A program made the translations under genes and the position numbers. The notes under the pieces were generated by a model. It did not search any database, was not told the DNA's origin, and saw only the letters and a list, made by a program, of their open reading frames with translations. A stretch of DNA of 62,995 bases, counting the filler, from Stramenopiles sp. TOSAG23-2 (taxonomy: Eukaryota), in the NCBI GenBank assembly GCA_900128395.1. It is 39 parts of 39 records of this genome, joined end to end, with 100 filler letters (N's around TTAATTAATTAA, not from the genome) between each part and the next. Parts side by side here need not be neighbours in the genome. Positions count along the whole stretch, not along the records: positions 17,113 to 18,326 come from LT653440.1; 38 more parts are not named here. One strand, written 5' to 3'. Each line of letters starts with the position of its first letter. Within the stretch, counting starts at the first letter, position 1. This document shows, piece by piece, positions 684 to 62,672 of this stretch.

Positions 684-1220
684 CTACGAGTCTTTACTTT
701 TTCCAATATTTAGTTCAATTAGTTTACGTAAATTATCTTCATTGGCACCAACAAGTTCATCGATTTTTTCACCATTTGCATAAAGTTGAAAGGTTGGCAT
801 CGCATTTACCTCTGCATCATGTGCTATGTCATCAAATTCATCTACATCTACTTGTAAAAATTCAGCATTATATTCTTTTGCAAATTGTTTAAAAGCAGGT
901 TTAATTTGTTGACATGGACCACACCAAGACGCAGTAAAATCAACGACAACAAGTGTTTTAGACGTTTTTAAAATCTCATGATATTTATCATCTGAATCAA
1001 TGACAACAACTTCCGTATAACGTTTTGTACCACGTAAATTCAATGCTTTTTTTGTTCCTTTAACATCTTTATTATCACTATTCTCTTTGTTCTTTTTAGT
1101 TACACTACTATAGTTAAAAAAATCAACTTTTTCACCTTTCAAATATGCATAACATTTTTGTAAAAACAACAATACAACTGGAAACAACCCCCATATTGGT
1201 ATGCATATTGGGCCTAGACA
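684..1220 (-). CDS. Thioredoxin with N-terminal hydrophobic extension, 5' truncated
   Basis: VVVDFTASWCGPC active site and AMPTF cis-Pro motif. Frame stays open to the contig edge (CLGPICIPIWGLFPVVLLFL...). Confidence 0.93.
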   Translation of the reverse strand, partial: CLGPICIPIWGLFPVVLLFLQKCYAYLKGEKVDFFNYSSVTKKNKENSDNKDVKGTKKALNLRGTKRYTEVVVIDSDDKYHEILKTSKTLVVVDFTASWCGPCQQIKPAFKQFAKEYNAEFLQVDVDEFDDIAHDAEVNAMPTFQLYANGEKIDELVGANEDNLRKLIELNIGKSKDS

Positions 1221-17012: not shown

Positions 17013-17127
17013 NNNNNNNNNNNNNNNNNNNNNNNNNNNNNNNNNNNNNNNNNNNNTTAATTAATTAANNNNNNNNNNNNNNNNNNNNNNNNNNNNNNNN
17101 NNNNNNNNNNNNCGAATGTAAATTTAT

Positions 17128-17190
17128 CTCAAGTAAATTGTGGGGAGATTTTAAAATCTATAGGTTTACCACTTTTAATTTTACTATCAT
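17128..17190 (-). promoter_or_regulatory. SECIS-like stem-loop in the 3' UTR of the UGA-containing redoxin
   Basis: Minus strand reads AUGAU-AGUAAAAUU-AAAA-GUGG...CCAC-AAUUUACU-UGAG: UGAN/NGAN quartet, helix II, unpaired adenosines and an apical mini-stem. The apical part is longer than canonical. Confidence 0.5.
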
Positions 17191-17261
17191 TGTTTTCTTG
17201 ATATTTCTTATTCATTAATCCAAATGTTTGTATATACACCATATATATTGTTCTTGCCGTT

Positions 17262-18290
17262 CTATACTGCTTCTTCTTCTTTCTCTTTATCCAATATAGC
17301 AGCAATTTCATCAGCAATTTTGCTTGATTTATTATTGATTGATTTGCCAAATTTACCATCAACTACTTTTCCATTTTCACCATTCCACCATTTCACAATA
17401 TTACCTTTCTTGTCTACCAATAAACGATTTGGTACAAATTGAACATGTAATGCTCTGACTGCCTTTTCATTTGCCCACATATGTTTCAATGCAGGCCATC
17501 GTGCTAATGCTTGGTTTCCCATACATTCTCCTTCAAATTTATCATCAACATTAATTGCTAAAAAGACTACTTGATCTTTGAATAAATGTTTTTGCAAAAC
17601 TTTAGACGATGCACGTTGATTTAATTGATCGAGGTTGCTTTCACATCCACCACGACCAAGTGGGGATCACGCATCCATACTTGTAAATCTATTTTTACCA
17701 ACTTGACTTAACCAAAAATCAATAACAGCAATTTTACCTTCAATTAAATCGCGTATTTTCACACGTTCACTAGAAAATAAATCTTTAATAATAACATTTG
17801 GTACTTGTCCACTCCAAGATTTTGATCCTCCTAATGGGTCGCGTTTCACTTTGTTTTGCAATTTTTGTTTGTTCATTTCCCGTTTCGCAGATGCTACTTT
17901 TTTATCGTAACTTGATACATTACTATCTCTACTAGCAAATGGTGCGCGTGATATGGAAGATGATGAATATGGTTTTCTGCTACTATTAATACTACCATTG
18001 ATAGTTTTATCACCAGTAATGACACTGTTACTTTTATAATTATTGTTTACATTGTAGTTTTCACCAAATGATAATTCTTTAAATTTTTGTATATGCGCTT
18101 GAATTAATTTATTTTTTTGTTTTGATGCATTGTAATATTCATTTGTTCCTCGTTTTCTAGTATTAATAATATTGCTACGTCTTGCCCTGCTACCTATTTT
18201 ACCCGTAACGTTCGATGGCCTACGTGAAGATGTTGAAGCAGTTGATGGTGCACGATGAAAATGTCCATTGGCTCCAATAACGCATCTCAT
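17262..18290 (-). CDS. Redoxin (TlpA/AhpC-like thioredoxin fold) with an in-frame UGA at 17667-17669; putative selenoprotein of 342 aa
   Basis: ORFs 17667..18290 and 17262..17597 share a frame and are separated by one TGA: GKIAVIDFW...MDA[TGA]SPLGRGGCESNLDQL...VVFLAINVDD...VQFVPNRLLVDKKGNIV. Confidence 0.7.
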
Positions 18291-19363
18291 AATTTTTATA
18301 TTATAATTTTTTATGTAATTAATGTGNNNNNNNNNNNNNNNNNNNNNNNNNNNNNNNNNNNNNNNNNNNNTTAATTAATTAANNNNNNNNNNNNNNNNNN
18401 NNNNNNNNNNNNNNNNNNNNNNNNNNAAAAGTGACATTCCAAAACAGAATCGTACATTATATATTGACTGCATTTCGTGTGGAACTGGGTTGAAAAAATA
18501 TATATAGTAACGAACAACAAAAACAGTAAGGTATGTATTAATTTTAGTATAGCTGCTTGTCAACACGAGTGTGCCCACTTTAACCTTTTCTAGTAATACT
18601 AAAGTATTTTATGAAACGAATATATTACTTGATGTGCATATTAATATATGTTAATATACGAGAAGATATTATTTAAAAAAAGAAGAATAATAATAAAGAA
18701 GAAGAAGAGAAGAGATAAAAAGAAGACGGACTGGAAGACAATCAGGACAACCAGGACAACTGGACAACCAGGACAACAACAACACCACACACTGCCAGAC
18801 TGCTGGACTGCCAGACTGCGGATTGCTGGATTGCCACAGCCTAAAACTCTGCGCTTGCCTGGCTTGCTGGCTTGCCAGAGTAGCTCTCTATTATAGCTAC
18901 TGCCAGACTGCATCAATATTAGCTATTATACCTGGTATTATAACATAAATACACACAAAAAGCTGTGTGCTGATGTGCTGATGTTAATGTGTGCTGCTCT
19001 TTTGAAATAAAAGTGGGCTATTATATTTATATTGAATATTGGAATACACTACCAAGTATGAATTGTGTGCCTGGTGTGAGATGGTTTTTCACATTTTTAT
19101 TATATTATTTATTATTATTATATATTATTATATAAAAATAATCATCTCTTCAGTCCAAGGAAATCTACCGTTTTGATACGAGGAATTAACGCAACAACTA
19201 TAGTTATCTGCACATAATAATCGCCAACACATATTAAGTATTACTTCGTATACAAAATTAATTGTATAAGCCAACCAAGTATTACTAACAATATTAATAA
19301 TAAACAATAATAGAAAGATCATTTACAAAATGCGCAGAGATACATACATATATTAATTCAGCA

Positions 19364-24993: not shown

Positions 24994-26206
24994 CACCAGG
25001 ATTATTCTGCAAATTACTGTTACAAGTAATTACAACTTTACTTCCGGCGATGGAGGCACCACCTAAAACTATTGTTAATACCTTATAATCATCGGCGCCA
25101 GCAGTCTCGGAAGCAGTTTGCGTATTGTACCCAAACTGGTGTCCTACACCAGCCGTTCCACTTAGTGAAAGTGTTGCACCGTTGGTCGTAGCTTTGCAAT
25201 CAATCGATGTTGTGTCAAACAAACCTTTATTTGAGTCTGAGTGGGTAGTAGTTAATATAATTTCGTCTGTTGACTTTAAAGCTTTGCCGTGTCTGAAAGT
25301 CAACGTAATCGTACCCGGTTTGCTACCACCGGTTTTCACACCGGGGACTAATGATACCGCCCAAAGACGATCGTTTTTATCAGTCCAAGCGGTCAATTTT
25401 GGGCTCATATAACCCTCGTCCATATGGCAATAGATATCATATTGTGTGTCACTAGGAAGATTTTTTAAAGATACTACATGATCGAAATTTTTCTCCTTTT
25501 CGTCTACAAATGTACTGGCTAAAGACACTAAATCTATATTTTGATCTTCGTAGAGATTAAATGTCGGGGCATGTGGCACTGCTTCGGGAGCTGTGAAGGC
25601 TCCACACGTCAACGTTCCTACGCTCCCCGAAGTTGAAACTGCAACGTCCACGTATGATGCCGTATAGTGTAAGGCGTCGCAGCGAATTTTAGTTATCAGC
25701 CCATTAAGACACGCGCCATTATCTCCGCCAATCCATTCTAATCCAGTTGTAACAACAAAAGACTGGCCGGCACTACTGCATTTTTTTTACGACATTTCGA
25801 GTCATTGTTGCACCTATCGCACCAGTCAACTCACCACCAACCTGTAATGGTCCATCTGGTAGTCCACCAATTGTACATGCTGAACGAATATAGTAAATTC
25901 GTGGCGAACCAAAAGCCCAACCAGCACTAGCAGTATCTGTCCCTGCAACTACTTGGAATGTAACTTCTGTATAAGTGCTTGGATTAACATTTATATTGCC
26001 AGTACATGTAATAACGATGGAATGGGCGGTGTAACCCGCACCATTTCCCCCAGGTGGTGTACAAGTTAAGATTGTCCCTGTTGATCCTGAGGATCCTGAG
26101 ACAATGCAAGTAGGTTCTCCCCCGGTTGGGGTAGCGCCATTGGCCGTGCTTAAACAATGACCAGCTGTTTCGCCATACATATTGATATTAGCCGCCCAAA
26201 TTTGGC
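24994..26206 (-). CDS. Fragment of a large Thr/Gly-rich extracellular beta-sandwich protein with a frameshift in an A8 run (25781-25788)
   Basis: Removing one A joins ...RNVVKK to CSSAGQSFVVTTGLEW...YVDVAVS and merges the two listed ORFs. Confidence 0.6.
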
Positions 26207-26728: not shown

Positions 26729-27468
26729 ATGTGTTGGAATATTACTATATCACTCGTATCTGCATCTATTGCTTGGATGGTATGTATATATCTTTTATAT
26801 AGAAAATATTCACCACGTGATGCATGGTATGCACGGTATTTATTTACATTTACATTGACACAATTAACAGATATTGTATTATGGAGTTTAAACGATTCTT
26901 CGGAACACGATGGCTTAAAAGCATGCATACCATATCAAATGCAATTTGGAAGTGCACCACCATCTGATCAACAAGTGAATTTCTACGTTTCTAAATATAT
27001 TATACCTTTAATAGTTTTTTCACAACATGCTATGCAATGCACTTTTCCATCTAAATATTATAAAAATAAACGAAAAGAAATTATATTGCTTCATTTAATA
27101 CCAGTTGCTATTATGTCATTTTGTTTTGCTTGTACACGAATTACGAAAAGTTATNNNNNNNNNNNNNNNNNNNNNNNNNNNNNNNNNNNNNNNNNNNNNN
27201 NNNNNNTTGGCTTATACAATTTGGTGCATGCATGCATTCCGGTTTAGTTGCATTTGTTATGTATCTTTTGTTACCAAAAAAAGTAAGCAATGTACATAAT
27301 TTTGTATTATTATGTGTTGTATTGACTTTATTAATTACAGAAGGTAGAATGGATTTAGGCAGTAAATGGTGTTCATATTGTTTAATTTATTCATTTGTTT
27401 ATTTAAATGATTGCTTTTTAACAGCAAAAGATTTAAAAAATATTGAAAATGAAATGAAAGAGTTATAA
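26729..27468 (+). CDS. Multi-pass membrane protein, DUF5765-like, with an internal sequence gap
   Basis: MCWNITISLVS start, several transmembrane helices, Q..D in an early helix and a C-terminal GSKWC. Confidence 0.6.
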
Positions 27469-27940
27469 TAAAATTTATTTTTGAAAGCGTGGACATATTG
27501 TTGGGGTGATGTTTGGAAANNNNNNNNNNNNNNNNNNNNNNNNNNNNNNNNNNNNNNNNNNNNTTAATTAATTAANNNNNNNNNNNNNNNNNNNNNNNNN
27601 NNNNNNNNNNNNNNNNNNNTAATTCTTACTCTTCAAAAGAATACAATAACTGTGAGGCAATAATATCTAGAATTATTTCTGGGATAATTTTTACCATATC
27701 CATCATTGTTAACAGTAATGTTGCTGTTGGCTGCATCTTTTGGATTTAATTAGGTTATCTTGAACGTGCGTTAACTGGTAACAAGTACTATAAGATAACA
27801 AAGCAAGATCGGGTACAAGCATTACTATAGTTTAAAGAGTAGATTGAAAGAGTCCATGTTAAAACAATTGAAAATTGCTACAAATAATAATACAAATATA
27901 AAAAACCAATCAATGATGTTGACACGAACATGTTCCAATC

Positions 27941-28931: not shown

Positions 28932-28964
28932 TGACTGGAGTTCAGACGTGTGCTCTTCCGATCT
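28932..28964 (+). other. Illumina TruSeq adapter contamination
   Basis: TGACTGGAGTTCAGACGTGTGCTCTTCCGATCT, which produces the spurious peptide RSEEHTSELQS. Confidence 0.98.
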
Positions 28965-30143
28965 AGTCGCTGGTATCGTTGCATCATTTGCAATCGCTCC
29001 ACCATCTTCTCCACCATCTTTTTTCTTTCTCAAAATTCTCTTTTTCTTCCCCGTCTTTTTCGCCGGTACTTCTTCTTTCTTCTTAACGGCAGCAGTCTCT
29101 TTTTTTGTCTGTTTCGTTCTGTTCCTCCTTTGACCCATGGATTCACTCGACGAGGAAAGAGAAGAAGAAGACGATGAATCCGAGGAATGTTTCGAAAGCG
29201 ACGAAGAATCTGAGTCCGAATCATCCGAGCTATTGCTCAAAGCTGCTTCGCCTCGTTGTTTTTGACGGATTTTCTCTAACGCTGCCTCTTTCCTCGCCTT
29301 AATAGATGCTACCGTTTCTTGAACGCGTCGTCTTTTCTCTTCTTTCAGTTTTTCAGCTCGAGCTTTCTTCGCCGAAGCGGTTCCCTCCTTGTCTTTCTTA
29401 GCTTGCTCGGCTTGTTCTATATCTAACGGCGCACCGACGTCGTCGTCCTCGTCCTCCTCTTCCTCCCCGTCTGAAGGAGGAAGTACAAACGCTTCCTTCT
29501 TTGGCGCGATAGCATCATCGAACAAATTTTCCGCCTTCTTATTGTTATTCTTTTTCTTCGGTTTCGTGAGTCCTTCTGCATCGCGCATGGCGTCCATGTC
29601 ATCTTCATCCTCGTCCTCGTCGTCTGGAAATTCAACGTCGTTGTAATCCTCTTCCTCCTCTTCTCCATCAGAGTCATCTGGAAATTCCACATCGTCACCA
29701 ACAATATCATCATCGTCCGATGCACCGCTCTTCCCCTTTCCGTTCTTACTCTTCTTCGCGTTCTTCGTGTTTTTCTTCTTATCTCCTTCATCGTCCTCGC
29801 CTACACCCATCTCCATAAAACTATGCATCGCTCGTCTCACTTGCGCGTTGTTTTTCAACTTCCTGACTCGCTCTAACACCACATCCGGATCCTCGTACGG
29901 ATACATCTCGTGTGCCCAGTTTCTATACATGCCTAAAATCAAAGACATATCGTGCGTCTCGTTCCCCTTCCCTTTTCTTTCTCGATCGAAAGTGTCCGCG
30001 AAGGTTTCGTACACTTTTTGAATTCCATTTGGGCCTAAAACGTGTTCCTCGATGGAAAACTTTGGTTTCCTTTTGGACACTTTTTCTGCCGACGTTCCGA
30101 CCGCATCCGCGTCGACACCATCGCCATTTCCAGTCTCCATTTC
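28965..30143 (-). CDS. TIPIN: TIPIN/Csm3/Swi3 replication-fork protection protein with a long acidic/charged tail, truncated
   Basis: RKPKF...VLGPNGIQKV...KGKGNETHDMSLILGMYRNWAHEMYP matches the Swi3 domain. Confidence 0.82.
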
Positions 30144-30829: not shown

Positions 30830-31453
30830 TCAATCATCAATTTTATCATCGTCTTCATAATCATTTTCCTCTTCATCTTCATCATCTTCCATAGTTTTTA
30901 GGAAATCCTTTGGTACAATGCCAATTTTATTTTTCATGGATGCCGCACCAGCATCGACTAAAAATTTGATAATTTCCTCATGCTTCTCTTCATATGCAAA
31001 ATGTAATGCGGTGTTCCATCTGCCATTGCGTAGATCTAAATCTGCTCCTGATTTAACTAATATCTCAACTATCTTTAAATGCCCCCACCATGCTGCGTGC
31101 ATTAAAGGTGTTGTATCGCGATGATCCTTCTCGTTAATATCTGCTTCTTCTTCAAGTAGTCTTTCGACTTCTTCAGAGTTACCAATCTGGCACATTCTAG
31201 AAATAAGAGGAATTTGCATACGTTCTTTCATTTTTCTAGATATAGATTTTAGCTTAAAACCAGCACTTAAAACACCAAATGAACTTCCTCGTTTCTTTCG
31301 AAAATTGTCACCTTTTTCATCTGAATCAGTTTCTACCACTTCCTCCTTTTCCTCTTCTAATACTACTGGTGGGCGCCATTCAGTAGGTGGTGCAATACCA
31401 TGCTTTGAACAAATATGAGAAAATATCTCCGGGTTTAAAGTCTCAGATTCTGA
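30830..31453 (-). CDS. Ankyrin-repeat protein, C-terminal part, 5' truncated
   Basis: TPLMHAAWWGHLKIVEILVKSGAD and TALHFAYEEKHEEIIKFLVDAGA; frame open to the contig edge. Confidence 0.9.
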   Translation of the reverse strand, partial: SESETLNPEIFSHICSKHGIAPPTEWRPPVVLEEEKEEVVETDSDEKGDNFRKKRGSSFGVLSAGFKLKSISRKMKERMQIPLISRMCQIGNSEEVERLLEEEADINEKDHRDTTPLMHAAWWGHLKIVEILVKSGADLDLRNGRWNTALHFAYEEKHEEIIKFLVDAGAASMKNKIGIVPKDFLKTMEDDEDEEENDYEDDDKIDD

Positions 31454-32867: not shown

Positions 32868-34079
32868 TACCATCATGTCCATCACGACCATCTTTACCAT
32901 CTTTACCGTTACTTCCATCATGACCATTAGCACCATCTTTACCATCATGCCCATCACGACCATTTGTACCTGGTACACCAGCTACACCTTGTTTACCTTC
33001 AGGTGCTTTGAATTCCACCCAATGACTTTTGTCCAACTCTTCTGATGGAGATTTTAAGGCTGTAAATGCTTTTGCAGCAATATACATTGAATCATGTTTT
33101 GGATCTTTACTTGATGGCGCAAATACATAATCACCTTTATTGTATGTTTGATCTTTAACAAAAGTCTTCAATGTCAATCCAGTACCATCATGTCCATTAC
33201 GACCATCTTTGCCGTTTGCACCATTTGTACCATCATGTCCATTATTACCATCTTTACCGTCAACTCCATCATGTCCATTATTTCCAGGTATACCTTGTTT
33301 ACCTTCAGGTGCTTTGAATTCCACCCAATGATTTTGATCAAGCTCCAACGATGGAACTTTCGTAGCGGTAAACTCTTTTGCAGCAATGTACATTGAATCA
33401 TGATTTGGATCTTTACTCGATGCAGCAAATACATAATCACCTTTATTATATGTTTGATGATTAACAAATGGTTTTAATGTCAATCCAGTACCATCATGTC
33501 CATCACGACCGTCAATACCGTTAACACCATCTTTACCATTTGTTCCATCTTTACCATTAGTACCTGCTATTCCAGGTATACCTTGTTTACCTTCAGGTGC
33601 TTTGAATTCCACCCAATGATTTTGATCAAGCTCCAACGATGGAACTTTCGTAGCGGTAAACTCTTTTGCAGCAATGTACATTGAATCATGATTTGGATCT
33701 TTACTCGATGCAGCAAATACATAATCACCTTTATTATATGTTTGATGATTAACAAATGGTTTTAATGTCAATCCAGTACCATCATGTCCATCACGACCGT
33801 CAATGCCGTTAACACCGTCTCTACCGTTTTTACCGTGATGCCCATTCGCGCCTGGCATACCTTGTTTACCTTGTTTACCTTCAGGTGCTTTGAATTCCAC
33901 CCAATGATTTTTCTCCAACTCTTCTGATGGAGATTTTAAGGCTGTAAATGCTTTTGCAGCAATATACATTGAATCATGTTTTGGATCTTTACTTGATGGT
34001 GCAAATACATAATCACCTTTATTGTATGTTTGATCTTTAACAAAAGTCTTCAATGTCAATCCAGTACCATCATGTCAAT
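32868..34079 (-). CDS. Collagen-like protein: Gly-X-Y segments alternating with four copies of a ~60-aa globular module; internal fragment
   Basis: (GxDGxx)n segments separate repeats of GLTLKxFVxxQTYNKGDYVFA...MYIAAKxFTA...P...HWVEFKAP. Confidence 0.85.
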
Positions 34080-38114: not shown

Positions 38115-39325
38115 CCATGGTAGAGATGGAAAAGATGGCATACATGGAAAAGATGGCATACATGGAAAAGATGGCATACATGGAAAAACTGGCCCACAAG
38201 GTATTCAAGGTCCAAAAGGAACAGCCGGTAATACTGGGCCGCAAGGTGAGCAAGGGGAACAAGGCCATACTGGCCGTGATGGTTTGAAAGGTCTAAAAGG
38301 TGATGCAGGGAATGATGGCAAGACTGGTGAGAAAGGATCAAAAGGCGAGAAAGGTATTGCTGGTGAGAAAGGCATCAAAGGTGAAGCGGGAAATGATGGT
38401 ATTGGTTTGCATTTGAAAACGTTTAAAGTTGGTGATCGATACAGTAAGGGTGATTACGTATTTGAAAAATCCACTAGAAATGATCATGAAGAGAAAACGA
38501 TGTACATTGCACAAAAATCATTTACAGCAGATGTTGAACCGTATAAAAATAAAAATGGTGCTTGGGTTGAATTCCATGCACCAAAAGGCCCTGCTGGTGA
38601 GAAAGGGGAACAAGGTGTGAAAGGTGAAAAAGGTGAGAAAGGTGAGAAAGGTACAGTAGGTAAAGATGGCGAAAAAGGCGATACTGGCGCTCAAGGTCCT
38701 GCCGGAAGAGATGGCGCTGATGGAACAACTGGTCCAGAAGGTAAACAAGGCAATGTAGGAACAGCTGGTCTACGTGGAAGTACTGGTCCAAAAGGTGAAA
38801 AAGGTACAGCAGGTGAAGATGGACAAAGAGGCAATACAGGCCCACAAGGTCCTAAAGGCGACAATGCTAATAGATGTTGCAAAATGTGCAAAGCAGGAAT
38901 AGCATGTGGGGACACCTGCATTTCAAAAGACGCAACATGCAGTAAACCAAAAGGTTGCGCTTGCAATGCAATAACACTAGATGGCTCTGGCTCAGGCTCA
39001 GGCTCAACACATCCAAGCTACTCTGCTCATGATAGTTATTTACTAGGCTCAGGCTCAGGTTCAGGCTCAGATTTAGGTTCAGGCTACGGTTCAGGCTCAG
39101 GCTCAAGCTCAAGACGTCCAAGCCTAGGCTCAGGCTCAGGCTCAGATTTAGGTTCAGGCTACGGTTCAGGCTCAGGCTCAAGACATCCAAGCTACGGTTC
39201 AGGCTCAGGTTCAGAGAAAGCGGCAGAAGAAGCAAAAAAAGAAGAAGATAAGAAAAAGGAGGAGAGATACAAGAAAGCGGCAGAAGAAGCAAAAAAGAAG
39301 GCGAAAGAGGAAGCGGAAAAGAAAG
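38115..39325 (+). CDS. Collagen-like protein with the same globular module as 32868-34079, a Cys-rich motif, GS repeats and a charged helix; internal fragment
   Basis: Gly-X-Y tracts; GLHLKTFKVGDRYSKGDYVF...MYIAQKSFTA...WVEFHAP; CCKMCKAGIACGDTCISKDATCSKPKGCAC. Confidence 0.85.
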
Positions 39326-41947: not shown

Positions 41948-42072
41948 NNNNNNNNNNNNNNNNNNNNNNNNNNNNNNNNNNNNNNNNNNNNTTAATTAAT
42001 TAANNNNNNNNNNNNNNNNNNNNNNNNNNNNNNNNNNNNNNNNNNNNGTGCCATGTCAAGTCATTTCCAAAT

Positions 42073-43257
42073 TTACCCCCCAAATGACGTAGCATTGATT
42101 ATCAACGAGAGAGACTGATTTTCTGCACAGTCTCCGGAAACACGAATGCCACAGTCCAGTATAAACTTTGTCGATATATGAACTGTATGATTCCCTGGAC
42201 CCACAGCATTAACCCGAACAAAAGGCTTACCACCACATTCCTCCAGCTGATATCTGTATTCATCCTTTGAAATGACATCAGGGTGAATCTGATTGTTAGC
42301 TGGCGAAACACCCGTGAACAGTAACGGCTTTCGATATCCGCTTCGATTAGAAGGAAACACCAGCGGCGTCGTTTGCAACAACGAGCGATTGAATGAGAAC
42401 TTGGGGGGCTGAAATAGAAAATATTCTTTATCATGCGACTTTTTTTTATTTGTGATCTCCATACAATTAGACTTCCCACCGACACTACATATATTCTTGC
42501 GATCTAAAATAAACGGAACACGATCACCCATAAACATCAAAAAGATATCACTCTCTGAGTCTTTTGGGCCAAGATTCAAGGAAGTCTGGGGCATGGGGTT
42601 CACACACACAAATTTGTCGTTGCCATCACCTAAGCCAATGGTAGCACCATTGCTTATACGTACCAAATCTTCAGCATACATTACATCGTTACCGGCATGT
42701 GTGTAAACTACAAGGGTTTTCGATCTCACACCATGTGCAAAAATTTTATCGCTACTACCACCTAATGACAAATGAAGGTGTGTTGTCGCTCCTCCGTACG
42801 CAACAGCACACGCGGCACGATGACACACGTCTCTTGCAAATGCCTCTCCAATCGTGCTGCAGAACGCTTTTGTTGGCGGAGGAGACGAAGACGAGTGTTG
42901 TGTTGCGAAGATGGATCCTCTAAGAGGATAAGCAGGTATAATATTTTCAATATCAGCATGGTTGATGCATCCATCATCTATGCTAAAATGTTGTGACGGT
43001 GCTAAATGGGAGGAGCCAGATATAAATGTAACGTTCGTCGTGATAGATGTACTTCCTGCGATTGCAAGCATAGACTTCGCACCACGTAGAGGATGTTCTA
43101 TGCAATTGAGACCATTTTTTGCACAATCGTTTTCACGAACAGTGTGGGAACCCATTGGAAGTATACCGATGTGAACCTCGTGGGCGTTAAAAATGTAGGT
43201 TGGTGCTGTGTATCTTTCTACATAAATAACATTTCGTAGCGACACCGGTTTGGCGTA
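42073..43257 (-). CDS. Fragment of a large protein with RTX-like/beta-roll motifs
   Basis: Long ORF containing GGSSDKI, THAGNDVMY and GLGDGNDKF. Confidence 0.5.
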   Translation of the reverse strand, partial: YAKPVSLRNVIYVERYTAPTYIFNAHEVHIGILPMGSHTVRENDCAKNGLNCIEHPLRGAKSMLAIAGSTSITTNVTFISGSSHLAPSQHFSIDDGCINHADIENIIPAYPLRGSIFATQHSSSSPPPTKAFCSTIGEAFARDVCHRAACAVAYGGATTHLHLSLGGSSDKIFAHGVRSKTLVVYTHAGNDVMYAEDLVRISNGATIGLGDGNDKFVCVNPMPQTSLNLGPKDSESDIFLMFMGDRVPFILDRKNICSVGGKSNCMEITNKKKSHDKEYFLFQPPKFSFNRSLLQTTPLVFPSNRSGYRKPLLFTGVSPANNQIHPDVISKDEYRYQLEECGGKPFVRVNAVGPGNHTVHISTKFILDCGIRVSGDCAENQSLSLIINATSFGG

Positions 43258-50714: not shown

Positions 50715-51467
50715 TCAATCTTCTTTGACTAAATAACAACCTAATAAACCTCTACCATCCCATTTAGATGGTATTAAAATCAAATCGATCAAATCTGTGC
50801 CACGTAATACAACCATAAGAATTTCTTTATTTTCATTTTCCATTAAATGTTGTGATAAACGTCTTAAATCTTGCATTCCACCAATTGTACGTAAAATAGT
50901 ACCAAAGGAAACAATACGATCACCAACACGAAGTCCAGCTAATTCACCAGGACTATTTACATCCACTTTTTCAACTCTTGCAATTGGATATTGGATATTA
51001 TTTGCAATGGATATACTGTTGTTGCTGCTGTTTGTGGAAGACGTTGTTGTCGTTGTTTTCTTTCTGGATGGGGTTAAATTATTTTTTTTATTATTATTAT
51101 TGTTCGACGTGTTATTTGCTTTGTATAATGCATGTAACTGTGGCAATAATTTTTCAATTGCTTTCATATTGTTTTCATGATCCGTTTGTAAATGTGCTAA
51201 ACGATTGCGTTGAATTCTAATTTGATGTATATCCAAATCCGCACGTGGAAAACCTTCAGAATCGATTAAACCCCCTTTCAATCCTGGTACAGCACCAGAT
51301 GGTTGTGGTGATAATAAATAATCATTAATACCAGCAATTTCTTGCTCAATTTCTTCCCTTTTTTTATTTAATAATAATAATATTTGTTGTAATTTTTCTT
51401 GTGGCGACATGTTTGCCACGTCGTTTTTTTGGTTAGGCAATGCATTGCTTGCGATTAATGATGCCAT
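50715..51467 (-). CDS. PSMD9: 26S proteasome assembly chaperone p27/Nas2
   Basis: LIDSEGFPRADLDI (Nas2_N), PDZ-like SPGELAGLRVGD and WDGRGLLGC. Confidence 0.93.
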   Translation of the reverse strand: MASLIASNALPNQKNDVANMSPQEKLQQILLLLNKKREEIEQEIAGINDYLLSPQPSGAVPGLKGGLIDSEGFPRADLDIHQIRIQRNRLAHLQTDHENNMKAIEKLLPQLHALYKANNTSNNNNNKKNNLTPSRKKTTTTTSSTNSSNNSISIANNIQYPIARVEKVDVNSPGELAGLRVGDRIVSFGTILRTIGGMQDLRRLSQHLMENENKEILMVVLRGTDLIDLILIPSKWDGRGLLGCYLVKED

Positions 51468-51809
51468 GTTTTGATTTGTATATATATCTATCTATCTAGT
51501 GATTTATATCAATCAATGTTGTTATATATATGTATATGTTCTCTGTATATTCATTTCTTTTAACTAAGAACAAAACTCAACTTATTAAAATATATTGAAC
51601 ATCAAATTCTTTTTGATTATTCTATGTATATGGACGACTAATAAGAACGATTAAGGTGATTTTGATATTCAGATGATGGAAAAAACGAGACTAAGAATGT
51701 GACAAATAGACGACATGTTGTACAAAAAAATACAAAAAATATTAATTTTTATTTTTAAAAAAGAATGTAAAAGTATTATTATAGAATTCACAATGACATA
51801 AGATAAATT

Positions 51810-54249: not shown

Positions 54250-56232
54250 TCAACCTTGTCGTATGGATTCTAAATACATTGCTTCTTCGATGTACACAAC
54301 AAATTTTAATTTCGATTTATCACCACATATTCTTAGTAACTCATCTTTTATTTGTTTTGCGCTTAATGTGCACATCCCATCGAAATATTTTGCATCTTGA
54401 TAAAATTTAACAACGCGATCGTATGTTTGTCGTCCTAATGCAGCAATTGCTTTTGTCTTTTTAGCATTTCCAGCACGAGTAGCTTTTCTGATACTTGGAC
54501 TACCAGGTGCCTTTATTGTATTTAAACTATTAATGTTACTAGTATTAATGGTATTAACATGATTGTTATTACCATATCTATTATTCCGTAATGCATTTAT
54601 AGCACTTAATTGCTTCTTTGTTGGCGTTACCATTTTCGTTGATGTTTTAATAGTCTTGCTATTTGTACGATTGACATGATCTTCATCTTCTCCATAATCT
54701 TCTTCCTCGTCGCTTTCAAAATCACTACTATAATAATCATCATCCCCATATGTATCATCCTCCTCCTTATGACTAAATGCTTCTACAGGGTCCAACGTGG
54801 ACGCTTCGAATGCCAATTGGATATCCTTAGGTTCAAAATAGGAAGCAGGATTTACCATGGCGCCGATCGAATGGTTAACAGAACTTGGCCGAAATTGCTG
54901 TGATGCGCGATTTTTAGCCAATATGCGATCTTGCTCTGCTTGCAATGTATGTTTCTTTAATTCTTCCAAACGTTTTGATTGGCGTAATTCTTCTCTACGC
55001 AATTTATCTTCCTTGATCATGTCCGCCCTTGATTTACCTGAGACAATAGGTGATGCCATGGAAGATTTAGATAAACGTGGTGGTGATTTTTTTCGAATTG
55101 ATTTATTAGTTGTTCTTTCAAGCTGAACACTATTATGATTTAACGGTGTTGGTATTGGTCGTTTGTAAATATTTTTTTGAGTTGATGGTTTCTGATCTTT
55201 ATTGTTATTACCATTCTTATTGTTGTTCTTGCTATACTTTTTTTTTATATTGTTGTTATTATTCTTATTGGACGATTGCGGTTTTTCCGTCTTTGTTGGA
55301 GGTTTCACTTTTAATGGTGGTGATCCAGGTGGTGGTGGTGGTGGTCGTCGTAAAGACTCCTCGTTACCACTACCGACAACTGGTGTTAATACTTCTAGTA
55401 AATCTTTTGATGTTGGACGTTGAGATGGACTTTTTGACAATAAAGTATTTACAATTTCACGCAATAACTCATCGTAAATAGTTGGTATATCTTCATATGT
55501 TTCTTGAACAATTTTATATACCAATCCCAATAAATTATTCGAATGAAAAGCACGTTTCAATGTGCACATTTCATAGACAATACATCCTAATGCCCACATA
55601 TCAGATTCAAAACTATATGGCTTATTCGAACATACTTCTGGAGACATGTAATACGGCGTGCCAATGACGGTCCGCGCTTGCTCCAATGTGCCATCTAAAA
55701 TTTTTGCTATACCAAAATCACCTAGTTTCACTTGTCCATTACCAGTTAAGAAAACGTTACTTGTCTTTAAATCTCGATGTAATATTTTACGTTGGTGTAA
55801 ATAATCAACCGCCATGGCAATTTGGAAGGTCCATTCTAATATTTGGACTTGGGAGAAGTATTTCTTAACTTTCTTCTGTTTCTTTTTATTATTGTTATTC
55901 TTCATGTTTTTCGACAATGTTCGTAGTTCTAACTGCCGTTTGATTCTTGCTGCCATATCGCCACCGTCACAATATTCCATAACAATATGTAACGTTTCAT
56001 CTTGTAAAAAATCACCTAAATAATTGACAATATGCCTATGCGACAACGATTTCAACACTTGCACTTCCTGCCTTGCACTATCTTTCTCCTCCTCATTCAG
56101 CGATACTAATGGTATTTTTTTAACGACTAAATTATGTTTCCCATCCCTACTCTGTACTAAATGTGCTGTCCCATAATTTCCTCTACCAATACGACGTACA
56201 TGTATAAAACCAGACATAGAAAGGGATGCCAT
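54250..56232 (-). CDS. NIMA-related (NEK) Ser/Thr protein kinase, complete
   Basis: [35 protein letters not shown] and GTPYYMSPE, followed by a coiled-coil tail. Confidence 0.95.
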
Positions 56233-57367
56233 ATTTATTAAAAATGTAATGAAATAGACTAGTGTGTGTATTATATCTATGTAGATCTATAGATTAAAAT
56301 CTCCTTTATATTATATATAAATAAGACACAATAAATATTCTAGATCAAAGAGAAACAATCAATGGATTATTATATTTGGAAATTGTTATATTTTTTTTAT
56401 AAAAAAGAGAGTGAAGTTGTCGTCTATGAATCACTGAAATTATATTTATTATTATTAATGTCACATTGTCTATATTTTTTGTCGTTAATTCAATCATTTT
56501 TGGCACAAGAAGAAGAAAAGTGGGTCGGCTATGAGAAAAGTTTAAGGAGGATGATAACATTAAGTTTTATTTATATCCTAAATATATATCAGGTAGGTTA
56601 AAACAGAGAGAATGTTAAAATAGGTACACAAATCTACGGAAAGAGTCTGACGACGCAGACTAACACAAATCAACAAAAATCGATTAAAGACCTTATAATT
56701 TAGCGTACACGAAAACACTTGATTTATGTACCTATAATATAAATAAAATTACTTAATGTTATTTATTTACGGATCATCCTCACAGTCAACTTTTCCTAGA
56801 TATGTTTGTAGGATAGATCAACAATGTTGGTGTAAAATCCAGTAATCTTTTATCTGGTAATATTCCTATCTTATCGTTACTTATACTGTTGAGAACAAGC
56901 GAACAAGCATTTGATGGAAATATGGAAATGTTACATTTTTTTGATCCCTATCAAATTTAACATATATTAGTACAATATATAATAGTCTAAATCGTTTGTT
57001 CCAAATCCAAAGCCAAATTGAAAATAACACCCACTGTGTCTATGCTATTGGTTTTAGGCGTAGTCCTATGCTAGAATAATATTTACAATTGAGGACTGTC
57101 CAGCTGTCCAGCTGTCCTTTGGTTGCAAACATGTATTAGTATAGATTAGTAAGAGCTATGCCACCAATTATTATTGGTTGGTTGCTTTGCTATTGCATTT
57201 ATACACAATTAAGAATACAGAAAAATTATAAATGAAAATAGTGCATTATATATGGTAAAGCAATAATCAGTATATAACTGTATAAAAAGATATCGATATC
57301 TTTAACAAATATTAGTTTTTATCGCGAATAGCTAGCGGATCGTAAGTCTATTATTTCAAATTATTGA

Positions 57368-60873: not shown

Positions 60874-61316
60874 AAATATTTTTGCATCATATATTTAAAT
60901 ACAATTTTATTTATATTTCTCAATATAATTATCGATGGTTTAAAATCTTAAGTTCTCAATATATATATATATATGTATACTGTTTCGATATTAAATATTT
61001 CACCTTACTCCTCAAAAATCCCTTTCTCCTTCATTTTATATACGACATACTAACACCATCTCAATTTTTCATTCCGTCTCAGTCCCTTTTTTACCTCCTT
61101 ATAATAAAATTTCATAACCAAGCCAGCAAGCAGCTATTATAGCTATTATTAATATATATATAGCCATAATGCTAATTATAATAAATGTATTAAAAAATGT
61201 AAATGGAAAAACAAAAATTACAGTTGAAGTAACAACAAAAGATGAAGATATAGACGTCGTTCATAACATCATATGTATATATACATATACATGTGTATTA
61301 TAAATAAAAAAGAATA

Positions 61317-62672
61317 ATGAATGACAATGGAAACAACGACAAAATAGATGCCGATAATATTAATGATAATACTTTTAAATATTTATCACATGGTGGAAAA
61401 CATATCATTTTTGAAATTTGTAATAATACAAAATATATATTACGTTGTAGTCGTTCTTCTGCTGTAAATAATAATAGCAACAAACCAATAAATAACTATG
61501 TACGTTTTTCTACAGACATTTTTGAAAAGATATTAGGTACCACGACATATTCAACATTAATGCAAAGTCATGGGAATAGTATTATGAAAATTAATAGCAA
61601 CACTTTAAAAAAGTTAAATAATGAAATATTATCAAAGTACAATAGTGATAATAATAAATATAATACTATAACTATTGATAACCCATATGTAAATATAGAG
61701 TTAAATGCCCATTATTCAAAGGAAGTGAATGATTTTCTGCAACAACAAACTTCAGAAACCAATGTAAATAAATATCATCGTTTTTCTATTGAAATAAAAC
61801 CAAAATCTGGAGTTTTATGTCGTAGTAACTTAATTTCAATGAAAAATAGAATAAAGAAAGAAAAATCAATTTATCAACTTCAACAAATATTAAAGCTAAA
61901 AAAAAAGAAAATTGATCAAATTAGTAAATATGATCCAATTGATTTCTTTCATTTTATTGATGATGACAAACAAAATGTTAATATGAAAAAGGCACTAAAG
62001 AATTTATTTGATAATCCACAAAATAATATGAATATATTTTCCATTGAAAATTCAACCGTAGAAAATGTCTCTACTACAAATTTCAAGGAATATTTTAAAT
62101 CGAATAATATAAATAATTATGAAAATATTATTAATCATTTAACAAATATATTAATGAGTAATAAATCACAAATATTATTGAAACAAATATACAATATACA
62201 AGCGATGGATGATTTTGATATTGAAGGCCTTGTTAAGTTAAAATTACCAACATTTGCATTAAATACGGCAAATGCTTTGAATTTTAAAGTAGACAATATA
62301 ATAAATGATGTAAATAATGATGGAATCGATAAAACGTTTGGAAAAATTGGATCAATGAATATTAATTCAATTATAAATGAAAAAATTAAAGAAGACGACG
62401 ATCATGATAATAATAATGTACTTAGTAATTCAGAAAAAATAAAAATTATACGTCGATTTTTATTGAGCAAAACAGCAAAAGATTTGTCATTGGTAATAAC
62501 CACAATATATCCAATAGACAATGAAACTGTAAATGCAGATGAATTGGAAACATTACCATTTTCTATAAAGATTATTGATACAGATTTTAAACCTATTGAT
62601 AAATTTAATGAATGGATACAAAAAGATTTGAATATCATGAATGCATATTTCGAGGAGAAACAAGGGAAATGA
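61317..62672 (+). CDS. IPK1: Inositol-pentakisphosphate 2-kinase
   Basis: YLSHGGKHIIF, IEIKPKSG, YDPIDFF, PQNNMNIF, FLLSKTAKDLS and IIDTDFKP. Confidence 0.88.
   Translation: MNDNGNNDKIDADNINDNTFKYLSHGGKHIIFEICNNTKYILRCSRSSAVNNNSNKPINNYVRFSTDIFEKILGTTTYSTLMQSHGNSIMKINSNTLKKLNNEILSKYNSDNNKYNTITIDNPYVNIELNAHYSKEVNDFLQQQTSETNVNKYHRFSIEIKPKSGVLCRSNLISMKNRIKKEKSIYQLQQILKLKKKKIDQISKYDPIDFFHFIDDDKQNVNMKKALKNLFDNPQNNMNIFSIENSTVENVSTTNFKEYFKSNNINNYENIINHLTNILMSNKSQILLKQIYNIQAMDDFDIEGLVKLKLPTFALNTANALNFKVDNIINDVNNDGIDKTFGKIGSMNINSIINEKIKEDDDHDNNNVLSNSEKIKIIRRFLLSKTAKDLSLVITTIYPIDNETVNADELETLPFSIKIIDTDFKPIDKFNEWIQKDLNIMNAYFEEKQGK

Follow-up and report, generated by a model that had tools for sequence, protein, structure and literature searches.

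What is to be made of a gene whose reading frame is broken by a single TGA, at the column where bacterial relatives of the encoded protein carry a catalytic cysteine? The question is raised by a locus in Stramenopiles sp. TOSAG23-2 (Eukaryota; GenBank assembly GCA_900128395.1), on contig LT653440.1, which occupies positions 17,113 to 18,326 of the window, the joined stretch of 62,995 nucleotides (filler included) that was analysed. Two minus-strand open reading frames (ORFs), 17667..18374 and 17262..17666, form one frame that runs from ATG 18290 to the stop TAG at 17264..17262. An initial annotation had proposed, from the sequence alone, that the two are parts of one hidden selenoprotein, in which an in-frame UGA within the active-site loop of a thioredoxin-fold domain specifies selenocysteine (Sec). 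The favored answer is close to this proposal, and is given a probability of roughly 80%: one intact selenoprotein gene, in which UGA codon 208 encodes Sec and a thioredoxin-fold domain derived from TlpA/ResA proteins makes up the C-terminal ~180 residues. The gene itself is real and previously unannotated.

Translation bears out the single frame. It contains just one in-frame TGA (17669..17667), no frameshift and no further internal stop, and with TGA read as Sec (U) it specifies 342 residues. The sequence elements that had been singled out around the TGA are all present, in the order IAVIDFW, LSQVGKNRFTSMDA-U-SPLGRGG-C, ESNLDQL, VVFLAINVDD, FVPNR, and LVDKKG. The break falls after the first strand and before the first helix of one thioredoxin fold, and the next ATG 3′ of the TGA comes only at M260. 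The N-terminus, MRCVIGANGHFHRAPS, is common to five orthologous pieces, and the more distant P0020 (homologue pieces are cited by number where needed) has MRVTVGASGHFHRAPS instead; the start at ATG 18290 is therefore right.

Several short motifs of the low-complexity N-terminal extension are kept across orthologues: GHFHRAPS; MRCVIGANGHFHRAPS; VTGKIG, also present in the distant P0033; SRAPFA.RDSN; and KRDPLGGSK.W.G.VPNV. Such conservation might mark a targeting or binding site.

How do relatives behave at the TGA? An exhaustive phmmer search with residues 150–342 against 1.84 billion cluster representatives returned 48 matches at E<=1e-3, 20 of them at E<=1e-10. Six terminate exactly one residue ahead of the TGA, 39 start at least 10 residues past it, and two (P0014 and P0033) span the site; the remaining match, a 750-aa repeat protein, was judged spurious and set aside. 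Together with two word-index searches, this yielded a set of homologue pieces, 14 N-terminal and 43 C-terminal. All 14 N-terminal pieces that reach the site end in (T/I/V)SMDA. Their identity to the query spans 98% to 25%; they belong to clusters of up to 37 members, and come from both AT-rich and Ala/Gly/Arg-rich proteomes. An end point shared across such diverse proteomes and such large clusters means that the TGA is not a read error. The 43 C-terminal pieces keep the downstream half, and two of them are ORFs of MMETSP transcripts. No whole protein was found among the 1.84 billion representatives, in the word-index searches, or in a longer-protein search, nor were longer or fused forms (itself weak evidence). 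Gene callers thus split this gene, as the initial annotation had anticipated.

The sequence on the far side of the TGA is conserved as well. Directly 3′ of it, SP.G(R/K)GG recurs in P0033, and ten other pieces start in the same frame as the conserved domain farther on, either at (R/K)(G/N)(G/S)..L.EL or a little ahead of it; judged by this conservation, the stretch is coding. Farther on, the C-terminal pieces keep F.A.N.D, RWP.L.H, FVPNR, and WWDG..G.V..G.HG.S..N.S. Homologues thus conserve the column of the in-frame UGA and the coding sequence that flanks it on either side, with the relatives' codons deduced from their proteins. W occupies this column in each of the two predictions that span the site: P0014 (92–94% identical to the query) reads ...MDAWSPLGRGGCES, and the distant P0033 reads ...IDAWSPEGKTG. 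A form with Cys at the Sec column was not found within the family at E<=1e-3 among the 1.84 billion representatives, whether in proteins of similar length or, in the separate search for these, in longer ones. In sum, the site behaves as had been expected of a Sec codon: 14 of 14 pieces stop, two of two crossing it show W, and the flanks are conserved on both sides.

The column acquires meaning from the domain in which it lies. A scan of prokaryotic genomes identified seven bacterial loci that encode proteins of the form ...GKIAVIDFWA(S/T)WC.PC..., which NCBIfam labels ResA/TlpA-like. When the family was aligned by hhalign with four of the bacterial proteins, the match reached 97.4% (E 1.2e-11), and a deeper family profile of 53 rows raised it to 98.3% in global mode (E 1.2e-13) and 97.7% in local mode. 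BLASTP against a bacterial relative gave E 5e-07, with 28% identity over 128 columns. The best match of the family profile in the PDB is 2lja, a thiol-disulfide oxidoreductase (E 0.014), together with ResA chains; a PDB sequence search with the single protein returned chance matches only. By these comparisons the domain is homologous to the bacterial TlpA/ResA thiol-disulfide oxidoreductases.

The alignments used were A4, of the C-terminal pieces, and a fragment alignment built with mafft --addfragments. hhalign, MAFFT and BLASTP all pair U208 with the first C of the bacterial C-x-P-C motif, P210 with its P and C216 with its second C. Two insertions separate the query from its bacterial counterparts: 11 residues after DFW (GKNRFTSMDA plus U), ahead of the motif; and five residues (LGRGG) inside it, which lengthen the first helix region and give U208-S-P210-(LGRGG)-C216. 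The expanded loop that had been proposed is thus seen in three alignments to TlpA/ResA-like proteins. Instead of the two-residue spacing of C-x-x-C, the query has U-x7-C, a spacing that the initial annotation had called unusual. That description suits this protein; it does not extend to its relatives. Among ten other pieces that reach the C216 column, only the near-identical P0014 has Cys, and the other nine have R, E, Q or S; P0033 has P there. To judge from these columns, U-x7-C describes this lineage and not the family, and since C216 is not conserved, the family's one conserved redox residue would be the Sec.

These features suggest how the enzyme might work. Sec would occupy the place of the attacking N-terminal Cys of C-x-P-C, in a remodelled loop. 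As the presumed nucleophile, its selenolate would attack an oxidised substrate (a disulfide, a peroxide or a sulfenic acid), yielding a selenenylsulfide or a selenenic acid. C216 could then resolve this intermediate, an option open to this lineage only. Because C216 is missing from most of the family, an outside thiol would presumably have to recycle the single selenol in the other members.

The C-terminal pieces fall into two types, 33 with the WWDG/HG.S motif and ten in which GPWASSVKNPS replaces G.HG.S..NGS. The members of the second subfamily are P0021, P0022, P0029, P0030, P0052, P0056, P0057, P0059, P0060, and P0063. In most of them Cys is present in ..NCD.. and ..EC.., and might supply an alternative resolving residue.

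A number of observations weigh against the Sec assignment, the first set concerning RNA signals. Rfam recognizes no selenocysteine insertion sequence (SECIS) on the contig or in the 148-nt 3′ untranslated region (UTR) at E<=10, nor in the window at gathering scores. The UTR does contain a candidate hairpin (17190..17128), in which AUGA-U is followed by a helix of 8 bp that has a single bulged A, then by AAAA left unpaired, a stem of GUGG with CCAC that encloses a further hairpin, and U-GA-G. The SECIS-like pattern that describes it was written only after the hairpin had been seen; a scan of 118,222 nt gave three matches to it, and when the UTR was shuffled 5000 times with dinucleotides preserved, 25 of the shuffles matched. 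The 3′ core of the hairpin is UGAG, with G for W as the last base of the consensus, given as KGAW in the accessible part of PMC3753652. Moreover, the hairpin forms no helix I, the contig stopping 14 nt past the core; its constrained fold reaches only −3.9 kcal/mol; and the UTR taken as a whole is less stably folded than shuffled copies of it (z +1.81). Nothing notable was seen in RNA structure 3′ of the UGA (z −1.26; 23 of 200 shuffles fold as well). A survey of fungi, so far as its available text reports, detected SECIS elements in only 5 of 16 selenoprotein genes (10.1101/314781), so a miss by Rfam is not fatal. The other two matches to the pattern, 27454-27518 (+) and 61060-61115 (-), have no TGA-interrupted ORF upstream and are probably due to chance.

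Decoding components are likewise missing from view: the window of about 60 kb contains no tRNA, and among its 141 ORFs there is no match to the Pfam families sought for Sec machinery (EFSec, SBP2, PSTK, SecS, and SPS). The window being only some 60 kb of a fragmented assembly, these negatives say little. On the protein side, the thioredoxin-fold domain claimed at the outset holds by virtue of the hhalign comparison with TlpA/ResA, at 97–98%, and not through Pfam alone. The Pfam match, to Thioredoxin_8, covers residues 231-298 only, at E 0.0043 and 17.8–18.4 bits against a cut-off of 27; that family matches 4 of 30 members at E<=1. NCBIfam gives only ResA, at E 0.017 and far below its cut-off. 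In addition, U was entered into the aligners as C, which favors its pairing with Cys.

The homologues also leave room for doubt. The stop codon of the 14 pieces, and the codon behind W in P0014 and P0033 (TGA or TGG), are deduced from predicted proteins, and W in these two could in principle be a true TGG. A true Trp there is the very kind of residue that the initial annotation had named as refuting its own proposal. Finally, stray Cys residues fall in the Sec column of P0029, P0034 and P0045 in the fragment alignment, where their flanks are unaligned and they were left uncounted.

P0045, of 98 aa, begins ...AACKGPKKRGGG, loosely like A-U-S-P-L-G-R-G-G with Cys for Sec, and is without the following ~36 residues, present in every other piece. 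A Cys form, a skipped exon or chance might account for it.

The alternative that survives best is that the UGA is decoded, but not as Sec: through near-cognate read-through as Trp, Cys or Arg, or in a lineage that reads some UGA codons as Trp. It has in its favor the W in both site-crossing predictions, the silence of Rfam on SECIS, and the lack of tRNA-Sec and Sec machinery in the window. It is nonetheless unlikely. P0007, 98% identical to the query, has Q where this gene has its TAG stop, followed by translated 3′UTR. The public protein collection thus includes calls made under non-standard codes, which explains a W at a TGA; the W of P0014 and P0033 is presumably what a table with TGA as Trp would print. 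TGA also acts as a normal stop here, as had been claimed, provided that the contigs represent one genome. It terminates 8 of the 21 stop-to-stop ORFs of at least 150 aa in the window, one of them being the N-terminal ORF of this gene, and Pfam domains support four of the other seven: a kinase (54253-56286), Nas2/PSMD9 (50718-51491), IPK1 (61308-62669), and an ankyrin protein (30833-31453). A lineage-specific change of code would not produce 14 of 14 pieces that stop at the same column in lineages of very different composition, AT-rich and GC-rich. The frame, too, has exactly one TGA, and that one at the column of the TlpA/ResA catalytic Cys.

Could the TGA be spliced out instead? The initial annotation had seen no plausible GT-AG intron. 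In-frame GT..AG pairs that would remove the TGA do exist, and to that extent the statement was too strong; each would, however, delete residues conserved in homologues, and to that extent it stands. The shortest such pair whose length is a multiple of three bounds 33 nt (17670..17638); without them, U-SPLGRGGCES would be lost and ...SMDA would run straight into NLDQL. At 54.5% G+C the segment lies above its neighborhood and the 31.8% of the contig overall, and it encodes the SP.G(R/K)GG that P0033 retains and at which ten other pieces start. Its removal would take away both residues aligned with the cysteines of CxPC, and in the window most genes with Pfam support consist of one long ORF. With GT, AG and a suitable length as its credentials, this intron is very improbable. 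Scarcely any credence can be given to the idea that the gene is a pseudogene, a product of misassembly or in reality two genes: public gene calls do list two ORFs, and the contig is short, but all 14 pieces break off at the same residue, in clusters with as many as 37 members, no frameshift or other stop is present, both halves are conserved to 25–45% identity, and the break cuts a single thioredoxin fold with no ATG after the TGA until M260.

Introns may exist elsewhere in the family. P0008, P0009, P0010, P0014 and P0033 leave the conserved sequence at differing points (..KFEGE, ..NNKSSK, ..GKSI, ..VVD), which suggests read-through into introns in these predictions; compared with such early exits, region 17265-17666 (-) of the contig is uninterrupted.

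The features that belong to the Sec reading of the gene are collected in the table.

Table. Positions in the window of the TGA-interrupted gene, its predicted protein features and its 3′ region.
Feature	Position	Strand	Basis
Coding sequence, 342 aa with TGA as Sec	17265..18290	-	Frame translation; N-terminus common to orthologues
In-frame TGA, codon 208, proposed Sec codon	17667..17669	-	Sequence; 14 of 14 pieces end before it, 2 of 2 crossing it print W
Stop TAG, after ...EEEAV	17262..17264	-	Direct reading
N-terminal extension, residues 1-160, basic, Ser/Asn-rich	17811..18290	-	Short conserved motifs; no Pfam family
TlpA/ResA-like thioredoxin-fold domain, residues 161-342	17265..17810	-	hhalign, BLASTP, PDB profile
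Expanded active-site loop, L194-C216	17643..17711	-	Three alignments; column conservation
FVPNR, residues 285-289, Pro loop	17424..17438	-	V, P and R nearly invariant; pairs with bacterial FPT/IPQ/IPN loop
C-terminal motif WW(D/N)G..G.V..G.(H/F)G.S..N.S, residues 301-322	17325..17390	-	Homologue pieces; absent from bacterial relatives
Candidate SECIS-like hairpin, 71 nt past the stop	17128..17190	-	Hand-defined pattern; not recognized by Rfam
3′UTR to contig limit, 148 nt	17114..17261	-	Sequence

The setting of the gene limits what its surroundings can tell. The window consists of about 41 short contigs placed end to end with 38 linkers, each a run of N, TTAATTAATTAA and a further run of N (for example at 17057-17068 and 18371-18382). 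The contigs are ordered by falling size, from ~1,220 to 1,209 bp, and are followed by three of ~5.2 kb. Since they are joined by linkers, genes that lie side by side in the window are not genomic neighbors. The TGA-interrupted gene is the sole occupant of its 1,214-bp contig, and so has no gene neighborhood and only 148 nt of 3′UTR. Five contigs (38116-39324 (+), 32869-34074 (-), 24994-26206, 28932-30143, and 42048-43257) have 38–47% G+C, compared with ~30% elsewhere, and each is filled end to end by a single ORF. Two of these contain collagen triple-helix repeats, one of them also NlpC/P60 and 26–30% identity to phage tail-fibre proteins; the higher-G+C contigs may be foreign DNA (phage, bacterial or viral) within the assembly. 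An unrelated ORF on the first contig, 687-1220 (-), encodes a classical thioredoxin domain (PF00085, E 3.4e-28).

A broader claim is offered tentatively, with the odds somewhat against it: that this protein is the first complete representative to be seen of a selenoprotein family of microbial eukaryotes that is undescribed and Sec-only, an offshoot of TlpA/ResA with the motif U-x-P-(5 residues)-X, an 11-residue insertion before it, one conserved redox residue, and a C-terminal motif specific to the family. Homology-driven selenoprotein finders, as the available portions of PMC3753652 and PMC7539508 describe them, need a Cys or Sec match flanking the TGA. With no Cys homologue, and every public call cut at the Sec codon, such finders would have missed the family. 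All public pieces of this widespread protist family, about 57 in number, are truncated at the same codon, an example of how selenoproteins are routinely lost in annotation; the full frame in this window ties the two family halves together. If the claim is true, a family devoid of Cys forms is a blind spot of present search methods. It would also widen the range of Sec active sites, with a long loop, the CxxC spacing grown from two residues to seven and a dispensable partner Cys, and would thereby bear on the extent to which the active site of a thioredoxin fold can be reshaped after Sec has taken the place of Cys. Moreover, the family would provide a marker for selenium dependence in marine and AT-rich protists.

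Among known systems, the bacterial TlpA/ResA proteins with C-x-P-C share most with the query: the strand GKIAVIDFW, the Pro of C-x-P-C, the VV.L..NV strand and the Pro loop. In contrast to them, the query is eukaryotic; has Sec for the first Cys, with 11 residues added before the motif and five inside it; has the second Cys in this lineage only; and carries the extra C-terminal motif WWDG..G.V..G.HG.S..N.S and a 160-residue N-terminal extension.

In mechanism, the protein might work like glutathione peroxidase (GPx) or a 1-Cys peroxiredoxin without being a member of either, the analogy being a thioredoxin fold with a single redox residue and an outside thiol. The peroxiredoxin active-site motif is PxxxTxxU in the part of PMC13188914 available; in KNRFTSMDAU the Thr lies five residues ahead of U, there is no Pro at −7, and PxxxTxx(C/U) is absent. 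Look-alikes from the peroxiredoxin and Redoxin families in the ESM Atlas (0.94, with 165 shared features, below the mark of 170) are leads only.

TlpA-type selenoproteins are already known in three settings: prokaryotes, the N-terminal domain of SELENOP, and the algal "TlpA" family. The prokaryotic examples include, in the accessible text of PMC13188914, a cd02966 "thiol-disulfide isomerase-like" protein with UxxC and a "UGC-containing TlpA disulfide reductase". Like the query they place Sec in a TlpA/ResA-like fold; unlike it they have compact UxxC or UGC motifs and use the bacterial Sec system. NF041054 of NCBIfam (ResA-like WAxxUGC) is matched weakly by the bacterial relatives and not by the query. 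The N-terminal domain of SELENOP has a TlpA/ResA-like thioredoxin fold with Sec first in its redox motif (PMC2397514, in the part available); it differs in its compact UxxC, its Sec-rich tail and its nature as an animal plasma protein, and no search made here returned a SELENOP match. Selenoprotein lists for Ostreococcus and Thalassiosira, as given in the available text of PMC2375036, include a "thioredoxin-fold protein" and hypothetical selenoproteins. Across the literature consulted, in main texts only, neither this family nor a U-x-P-x5 loop was described, and no motif was given that could be matched. The remaining comparison is with the algal "TlpA" selenoprotein family, which the accessible portion of Jiang et al. 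2020 (PMC7539508) describes as thioredoxin-like, with about 80% in the Sec form, and for which the same source reports a hemerythrin domain. The 342-aa query has no Pfam match to such a domain, the two families being compared by description only. So far as that source describes it, the algal family is like the query a selenoprotein of microbial eukaryotes with a TlpA-like domain, mostly in the Sec form.

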